In this document: piece by piece, positions 63,001 through 63,369 of the stretch | How the letters are laid out: every line of letters begins with the position of its first letter | Numbering within the stretch: the stretch's first letter is position 1 | Sequence record: AP012529 | Origin: Stx2-converting phage Stx2a_F403 | Strand: one strand, 5' to 3' | DNA: 63,369 nucleotides | Position numbers: made by a program

Positions 63001-63369
63001 TTCAGTGCGGTCAGTATGCGATAGCTCTGGAGGATTTGTCAATCAGCGGAATATTGATGAACGGGTAACGGTAAATGCCTCATCCAGAAAATTAACGCAA
63101 ATTCGCATCGCAAACTTGCGTTAATTATCTGAAATATCAAGTTAAATCCCCTTAAATGTTTGGGGCACTATTGGGGCAAAATGTGGTTGTTTGGGGCACT
63201 ATTGGGGCAAAATGTGGTTGTTTGGGGCATATTTGGGGCAAAAAAGAACGTATAAAGAACGGTGTAAAATTGATTTCTTCATGGTCAAAATGAGGTGTAA
63301 CAGATTGAAAAATATATGCTCTTGGACGATCTTCGGTAATTCTGTGTTTTTAATGCTTCATGGTTTCAA

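Follow-up and report, generated by a model that had tools for sequence, protein, structure and literature searches.

The closest described systems to the locus treated here are the attachment site (attP) of phage lambda and the IntR/XisR system of the Rac prophage. Lambda employs a heterobivalent tyrosine integrase (Int) with a separate arm-binding domain, and both arms of its attP carry copies of a short motif that does not resemble the core. The lambda excisionase, Xis, acts on one arm only, and recombination directionality factors (RDFs) often bind arrays of direct repeats that are about one helical turn apart. Lambda int is also subject to retroregulation by sib, reportedly described by Schindler and Echols in 1981. 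This retroregulation is cited in a passage of PMC5300877. In Rac, XisR has been shown to be an excisionase and binds an attR fragment in gel shift assays (PMC4632033). Here, we describe a 63,369-nt stretch of DNA from the Shiga toxin 2 (Stx2)-converting phage Stx2a_F403 (AP012529), hereafter the window, which is a 933W-type Stx2 prophage written from its attL core to its attR core. The subjects of the analysis were the TTGGGGCA motifs repeated near these two ends and an inverted repeat at the attR end. The explanation that best accounts for the whole, and that we consider probable, is a lambda-style attP with candidate arm-type sites for Int and, separately, a hairpin resembling lambda sib/tI.

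The heptamer GTTTCAA stands in identical form at both ends of the window (Table 1), and the final 570 bases match 933W, Stx2 phage I and other Stx phages at 100% identity. The position of the core was taken from annotated records. In addition to those cited in Table 1, the VT2-Sakai record gives the same heptamer as the attachment site within wrbA and shows the wrbA junctions. The original prediction, which was made from the sequence without database searches, had allowed that the true core might map elsewhere and leave the repeats outside the recombinogenic region; the ends of the window coincide with the annotated core. Joining these ends (62795..63369 + 8..1400) rebuilt a lambda-style attP, and in phi191, whose record is permuted, the attP junction is present as contiguous DNA with a 200-bp gap between the arm arrays. 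The core of the reconstructed attP reads CATG-GTTTCAA-CATG, with inverted CATG on both sides, and that of the reconstructed wrbA attB reads CATC-GTTTCAA-TATG. These flanks are consistent with core-type sites around a 7-bp overlap.

Domain analysis of Int, encoded next to attL, matched residues 15-78 to PF12167 (Arm-DNA-bind_2; E = 6e-26; 90.6 bits, cutoff 22) and residues 210-403 to the catalytic domain PF00589 (Phage_integrase). Int therefore has the domain required to read arm sites. In a comparison with PDB sequences, the N-terminal domain of Int had no match, and the whole protein matched only the catalytic domains of other recombinases.

The window contains seven exact copies of TTGGGGCA, always on the plus strand and never more than ~210 bp from the att core; CTGGGGCA is the second member of the int-proximal pair (Table 1). 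Relative to the core, six sites at −202..−122 make up the P arm and two sites at +71..+89 the P' arm, the innermost P site lying 129 bp ahead of the core start. The tandem 31-bp unit, its motif copies, their location at the att end, and the two further motifs at 70..90 within the last int codons were all found as originally described. The six P sites had also been called evenly spaced; their spacing alternates instead (11, 20, 11, 20 and 11 bp), such that they form three pairs. The count of the bare motif is not significant (7 versus 3.4 expected; 7 of 100 shuffles reach 7). Searched as a pair on both strands with up to 2 mismatches, TGGGGCA-N4-TGGGGCA occurred four times versus 0.53 expected, on the two att arms only, and 0 of 100 shuffles reached four. 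Three of these four occurrences are copies of one tandem unit and hence are not independent.

Comparison with related integrases provided further evidence. TGGGRCA-type pairs in an 11-bp register are kept on both arms in every relative in which both arms were readable (Int 44-68% identical), and the integration sites of these relatives differ where mapped (yecE-type, ttcA). More specifically, Klebsiella phage RothC (Int 65%) has, in the final codons of int, a ATGGGGCA pair with 11-bp spacing and, 196 bp away on the P arm, a second ATGGGGCA pair. In PPyecE_EH1910 and YYZ-2008 (Int 66-68%, 21-bp core), a ATGGGGCA/ATGGGACA pair adjoins int on the P' arm and three contiguous sites lie at −141..−119 on the P arm. 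Yersinia phage vB_YenM_30.14 (Int 51%) has one pair at each end of its record, and the Rac prophage of E. coli K-12 (Int 44%, integrated at ttcA) has ATGGGGCAaatTGGGGGCA at attL and an A-rich GGGGCAAAA array at −144..−114 at attR. Finally, two IMG/VR contigs retain an intact attP with a P' pair at the int 3' end: L066 (Int ~70%) has two P pairs 198 bp beyond it, and L104 (Int ~68%) has one P pair 199-210 bp beyond it. The geometry is conserved as well. In six reconstructed relatives, the P' pair is at +70..+87, the innermost P site at −114..−129 (−114 to −122 in PPyecE, YYZ-2008, Rac and the Yersinia phage), and the last P site is separated from the first P' site by 187-200 bp.

In a wider survey, the P' pair was found in the same place in all 13 GTDB genomes with a 63-70% identical Int and at the int 3' end in 78 of 80 IMG/VR loci. 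This survey yielded 12 distinct P' pair sequences, in which the N4 spacers vary and the 7-mers do not. In most family members, the pair lies within the int frame and encodes ..A/V-P-x-x-P-H/Q... Across 18 coding homologues, the five third-codon positions in the two 7-mers have zero entropy, whereas the values for the third positions of the 15 codons around them are 0.85-1.9 bits. In Rac, where IntR is shorter, the pair sits in non-coding DNA, 10 nt past the TAG stop of intR; the P-arm copies are non-coding throughout. The invariant synonymous positions, the non-coding Rac pair and the non-coding P-arm copies together point to a constraint that acts on the DNA rather than on the encoded peptide. 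Overprinted on the int frame, the arm sites could dictate the conserved A-P-x-x-P-H/Q tail. The C-terminal tail of 933W Int (..SDQEDEIKLYFSK, 29-70 on the minus strand) is ~7 residues longer than in relatives of 51-68% identity, extending beyond the P' pair and reaching within 22 bp of the core.

No part of Int is better conserved than the arm-binding domain, which has identities of 80, 77, 72 and 48% versus 67, 59, 35 and 28% for the core-binding region. This pattern would fit a shared arm motif and diverged cores. We regard the comparative evidence, in which both att sides were read in relatives of Int of decreasing identity, as decisive: the TTGGGGCA motifs are most likely arm-type sites for the N-terminal Arm-DNA-bind_2 domain. 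The earlier proposal that arm-type sites are split between attL and attR thus appears well supported by the att ends, the Int domain, the conserved motif and register, and the DNA-level constraint.

An inverted TGGGGCA at 186-192 on the minus strand was considered as an extra site. It corresponds to the M-G-H codons of the Int catalytic box, where the same string recurs in RothC, the Yersinia phage and Rac, and is probably no site.

Between the P-arm sites and the core, the window contains a candidate site for integration host factor (IHF; Table 1). One-mismatch matches to the IHF consensus, likewise consensus matches only, were found at −60..−65 in five of the six reconstructed relatives, and none was found there in RothC. 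The IHF-like sequence of Rac, TTTCAATGTGTTA, is at −61, and the 933W and Rac versions are near-identical (TTTCAAT[CG]TGTTA). Near the core, the window shares a box, GCTCYTGGACGATCTTCG, with the yecE-type phages and RothC.

By analogy with lambda, each Int protomer would place its N-terminal domain on an arm site and its C-terminal domains on a core site of CATG-GTTTCAA-CATG. A bending protein at the IHF-like site, at approximately −65, together with the DUF1233 Xis on the P arm, would fold the arms back to the core and would set the direction, integration or excision, of the reaction. Three P pairs lie on the far arm (now attR) and one P' pair on the int-proximal arm (now attL).

Several other sequences in this region were noted. 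A box, GCTCTTGGACGATCTTCGG (63318-63336), lies between the IHF-like site and the core and is conserved in PPyecE/YYZ-2008, L066 and L104 despite their different core; it is possibly present in RothC and, by eye, is not present in Rac or the Yersinia phage. The word CAAAATGWGGT is repeated as well, between the arm pairs (63177-63187 and 63208-63218) and again ~75 bp from the core (63286-63296), and could be a site for an accessory protein. The sequence CTTCATGGT, comprising the left core-type half-site and the first two bases of the core (63356-63364), is repeated 79 bp upstream (63277-63285). The upstream copy reads TTTATGGT in the Stx1 and O104-type variants, so the repeat may be due to chance.

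We next consider the inverted repeat. It had been described as a 9-bp repeat at 63092..63124 and grouped with the att arrays. The repeat is real; its extent was understated, as the arms are 22 nt long, 86% complementary and separated by 3 nt (63085-63131). It is also probably no recombination element. In the minus-strand RNA, which has the sense of int, it forms a near-continuous 22-bp stem of −27.9 kcal/mol (z = −7.7), versus −18.1 kcal/mol for the plus strand. The minus strand is the more stable because two positions pair as G-U there and are A-C on the plus strand. When the lambda region was folded too, a hairpin was found just past P1. The window and lambda hairpins read CAGAUAAUUAACGCAAG and CAGAGCAUUAGCGCAAG, respectively, in the 5' arm and UUUGCGUUAAUUUUCUG and CUUGCGCUAAUUUUUUG in the 3' arm, agreeing at 14 of 17 positions in each; the chance expectation per arm pattern is 0.17-0.35 per window. 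Both hairpins are interrupted by a mismatch at about the same point of the stem, and they differ by a compensatory G-C to A-U exchange; both are U-rich on the 3' side, which in the window reads UUAAUUUUCUGG and contains the U-tract UUUUCU. The stem is kept in four 933W-type sequence variants, in which one more G-C pair has become A-U by a compensatory change and two one-sided changes improve the pairing.

In the attP form, the distance from the int stop to the hairpin, which lies downstream across attP, is ~260 nt; in the prophage, int and the hairpin are at opposite ends. We conclude with moderate confidence that it is a homologue of sib/tI on the int-sense strand and, judging from lambda, most likely a terminator or retroregulator of int rather than a recombination site. 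As such, it would terminate or destabilise int transcripts that cross attP in the phage form, presumably with processing by RNase III, and would be uncoupled from int in the prophage. No Rfam family was found for the hairpin. For another terminator-like stem (62950-63010, minus strand), the fold was no more stable than that of shuffled sequences (z = 0.12).

A number of points weigh against this interpretation of the two elements. Six of the eight sites copy one tandem unit, leaving about four sites as independent evidence in the window. All sites have one orientation, whereas lambda P2 is inverted, and the lambda assembly rules may not transfer directly. The IHF-like site is a candidate identified by a one-mismatch consensus match only. 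In the searched literature, we found no binding or recombination experiment on these sites, and no mapping of 933W-, wrbA- or yecE-type arm sites, the motif string or a 933W sib; the original 933W and Stx2 phage I papers may mention them. As to the hairpin, its U-tract is short, one variant substitution pairs only on the plus strand, and other Int-family lineages lack it. A generic terminator scan, whose loop and G-C criteria are ill-suited to long A/U-rich stems, also did not call it.

An alternative for the inverted repeat is that it functions as duplex DNA, as the operator of a dimeric phage regulator associated with the neighbouring promoter-like site (63042-63013) and antirepressor-like gene, or else that it is a plain insulating terminator. 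The promoter-like TTGACA-18-CATACT is 43 bp away on the same strand, and the neighbouring gene encodes an AntA/P22_AR_C protein. The variant substitution mentioned above leaves the strand unsettled, and the lack of the hairpin in other Int-family lineages also suits this alternative. By contrast, an operator would not account for the 14/17 likeness of each arm to lambda sib/tI, with the shared mismatch, compensatory change and U-rich 3' side, nor for a position that, as in lambda, is beyond the outermost arm site and on the int-sense strand. Moreover, the int-sense RNA in the window gains ~8-10 kcal/mol in stability over the antisense RNA from its G-U pairs. Finally, operator half-sites are typically far shorter than 22 nt, and the arms of the repeat are much longer than such half-sites. 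We therefore consider an operator or plain insulator possible but unlikely, and favor the sib/tI-like hairpin.

Three alternatives for the TTGGGGCA arrays were scored low mainly because the motif is found on both arms and tracks the arm-binding domain of Int. According to the first, the arrays are sites for the DUF1233 excisionase, Xis, and not for Int. The sites are indeed direct repeats at 11-bp spacing, a Xis homologue is found with every Int homologue examined, and the attR fragment shifted by Rac XisR (PMC4632033) may include the GGGGCA array. Nevertheless, the Xis proteins are only 33-52% identical (33% between the window Xis and Rac XisR), whereas the motif is nearly invariant and follows the conserved domain of Int. 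Wherever both arms were read, the motif was on both, including next to int at attL, rather than confined to one arm as sites for a lambda-like Xis would be. Better RDF candidates are available: PPyecE/YYZ-2008 and Rac have different short direct repeats, identified by eye, beside the innermost arm site, and at the equivalent place in the window the AAAGAACG repeats (Table 1) are candidate Xis sites. Such lineage-specific repeats would suit sites for diverged Xis proteins. Overall, Xis as the reader of the TTGGGGCA arrays is very improbable, and the arm-type reading is retained.

The remaining alternatives concern the tandem unit itself. Tandem Repeats Finder reported a period of 31 bp with 2.8 copies and 96% matches at 63157-63243, and the sole earlier annotation found for the array is 'arrangement gg; region III' in AP004402. 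Copy numbers were determined from an alignment of 933W-type attR regions and from site counts. Two P pairs are present in VT2-Sakai, the Stx1/Stx1a phages and the O104:H4-type phage phiON-2011, three in 933W, Stx2 phage I and the window, and four in Min27. Pair 1 is missing in Sakai-type phages and is therefore assigned to the duplicated 31-bp unit. As two P pairs are seen most often in the alignment of 933W-type phages and occur in the unrelated L066 too, we take two P pairs and one P' pair as the basal architecture, with the third P pair in the window being a recent duplication of the unit. Since 31 bp corresponds to approximately three helical turns, added sites keep the same helix face. 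The number of P pairs, arising by slippage of this helically phased unit, may tune the assembly of Int into integrative versus excisive complexes. This idea is speculative and we consider it doubtful: what was observed is the polymorphism (2, 3 or 4 pairs) and the overprinting on int. If it were correct, closely related Shiga-toxin phages should be unequal in the stability of their lysogens, in spontaneous excision and in spread. Interpretation of the repeats as coding sequence (45-aa open reading frame (ORF) 63156-63293; ORF-43 of AP004402) fails because 31 is not a multiple of three and copy-number variants shift the frame.

The variable copy number might also be taken to mean that the array is a functionless tandem duplication, the copies in int reflecting only a need of the protein for A-P-x-x-P-H/Q. 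In keeping with this, phages with 2, 3 or 4 pairs show no obvious harm and the P' pair is in frame with conserved Pro codons. By contrast, a requirement of the protein would not fix the synonymous third positions of the 7-mers while their neighbours vary freely in the 18 homologues, and the Rac pair encodes nothing. Similarly, the basal two P pairs are kept in the non-coding DNA of relatives that are otherwise dissimilar there, and the frame shifts in the 45-aa ORF speak against a coding role on the P arm. A functionless array thus has very little to recommend it as compared with arm-type sites. That the repeats are iterons or the partition centromere of a replicon is scarcely credible: tandem repeats of ~20-30 bp look iteron-like, but the element is a lambdoid prophage integrated between att cores, its neighbours are int/xis and an antirepressor-like (AntA-type) gene rather than a replication initiator or ParB, and the motif recurs across the core in every relative with both arms read.

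Table 1. Coordinates of the att cores, candidate sites and flanking genes in the window.
Feature	Position	Strand	Remarks
attL copy, core GTTTCAA	1..7	+	Same heptamer annotated as attL in Sakai
int, 444-aa tyrosine integrase with N-terminal arm-binding domain	29..1363	-	Pfam
P'-arm candidate arm-type pair: TTGGGGCA 71-78 + CTGGGGCA 82-89	71..89	+	Overlaps int C-terminal codons ..APDVPQ..
xis-like RDF, 99 aa	1392..1691	-	Pfam DUF1233 'putative excisionase', E = 1e-30
AntA/P22_AR_C antirepressor-like gene	62165..62794	-	Pfam
Long imperfect hairpin, lambda sib/tI-like	63085..63131	-	Arms 63085-63106 + 63110-63131
31-bp tandem array bearing three P pairs	63157..63249	+	Units 63157-63187, 63188-63218, 63219-63249
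P-arm candidate arm-type pair 1: TTGGGGCA 63160-63167 + 63171-63178	63160..63178	+	11 bp start to start
P-arm candidate arm-type pair 2: TTGGGGCA 63191-63198 + 63202-63209	63191..63209	+	In all aligned 933W-type variants
P-arm candidate arm-type pair 3, core-nearest: TTGGGGCA 63222-63229 + 63233-63240	63222..63240	+	Motif search
Direct repeat AAAGAACG x2, 11 bp apart, adjoining innermost arm site	63243..63261	+	Candidate Xis (RDF) sites
IHF-like site TTTCAATCTGTTA, one mismatch to WATCAANNNNTTR	63298..63310	-	~65 bp from core; consensus match only
attR copy, 7-bp crossover core GTTTCAA	63363..63369	+	'attR core' in 933W AF125520; 'attachment site' in AP004402, AP000422

The DNA adjoining the attR end contains further features. 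The only above-threshold Rfam match in this region is a full-length match to sRNA-Xcc1 (RF02221) at 62835-62923 on the minus strand (69.1 bits, gathering threshold 53; E = 4e-12). Located ~40 nt upstream of the antirepressor-like gene, it may represent a 5' leader or a small RNA tied to that gene. The promoter-like TTGACA-18-CATACT (63013-63042, minus strand) faces both. In the leader of the gene, a G+C-rich hairpin, ACCGCCAG..CTGGCGGT (62823-62845; minus strand −15.9 kcal/mol, z = −3.9), overlaps the 3' end of the sRNA-Xcc1 match. Many other lambdoid phages, Stx2 phage 86 and AU5Stx1 among them, contain the 93-bp stretch 62950-63042 at 90-98% identity in unrelated places, and a shorter match to it was found in Vibrio phage VHML; the stretch looks like the boundary of a mobile module.

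A near-identical gene pair lies on the same strand near opposite ends of the prophage (4103-5094 and 61000-62117). It consists of an EaA-like ORF, in which the copies agree fully over the first 115 residues and remain similar up to residue ~158, and a 73-aa ORF of the DksA/TraR zinc-finger type. The repeat is labelled 'arrangement cde; region II' in AP004402 and could support internal recombination. A 70-aa mok/hok-type toxin ORF is located at 60159-60371 on the minus strand; the 933W record gives mokW/hokW with a sokW antisense RNA.

In E. coli O157:H7 and O104:H4, stx2a is carried by 933W-type phages, whose integration and excision govern how the toxin gene spreads and how stable the lysogens are. 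TGGGRCA would provide an arm-site consensus for the whole IntR/Int933W family (Arm-DNA-bind_2). Such a consensus would help in annotating prophage ends, in designing integration vectors and in predicting cross-reactivity among co-resident Rac-like, yecE-type and wrbA-type prophages. Together with the sib-like hairpin, the polymorphism of two, three or four pairs offers concrete points from which to study how Int regulation differs between outbreak-associated phages.

To compare the window with lambda attP, matches to the lambda arm consensus were located at −142, −111, +54, +64 and +75, the P' sites abutting the int stop. The arm-consensus matches at 27785-27815 do not coincide with the 'int 4' feature of the lambda record (27814-27854), and the former were relied on. 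The window shares with lambda the heterobivalent integrase with its separate arm-binding domain and the short, core-unrelated motif on both arms. It also shares tandem P' sites, spaced by one turn, at or over the int 3' end (+54..+84 in lambda, +71..+89 in the window), P sites over 100 bp away from the core, a candidate bending site that resembles the IHF consensus and is placed between the arm sites and the core, and a xis-int gene order pointing to attP. The two systems differ in the motif, which is TTGGGGCA in the window and C/AAGTCACTAT in lambda, and in the arm domain, which is PF12167 in the window and not the lambda-type Pfam family. In the window type, the sites are paired (two to four P pairs and one P' pair) and in one orientation, whereas lambda P2 is inverted with respect to P1 and P'. 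In addition, the P' pair of the window is embedded in the int coding sequence and the number of P pairs varies between 933W-type phages.

The hairpin resembles lambda sib/tI in its strand, its place beyond the outermost arm site and its separation from int upon integration. The two hairpins are also alike in having an outer stem, a mismatch and a long inner stem, in the 14/17 agreement per arm, and in the U-rich 3' flank. They differ in the apical stem and loop and in the U-tract, which is UUUUCU in the window and the longer UUUUUUGU in lambda. Further, the window hairpin is 28 bp from the outermost arm site, whereas that of lambda abuts it.

The Rac IntR/XisR system is related through both proteins (Int 44%, Xis 33% identical) and has GGGGCA pairs or arrays on attL and attR at the same distances. 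By contrast with the window, Rac is integrated in ttcA with a 26-bp core, has a shorter IntR and hence a non-coding P' pair, carries an A-rich GGGGCAAAA P array with 10-11 bp spacing in place of discrete pairs, and is without a sib-like hairpin. PPyecE_EH1910, YYZ-2008 and RothC are closer in Int (65-68%) and have ATGGGGCA or ATGGGACA in an 11-bp register on both arms. The first two differ from the window in core and integration site (21-bp duplication), and PPyecE has a dinI gene with a LexA-box-like sequence, recognized by eye, in the place of the hairpin. The number of P sites also distinguishes these phages: PPyecE/YYZ-2008 have three contiguous sites, RothC has one pair, and the window type has two to four pairs. 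Set beside these systems, the candidate arm sites and the sib-like hairpin are ordinary phage biology, unannotated here until now, and fall within the lambda paradigm.

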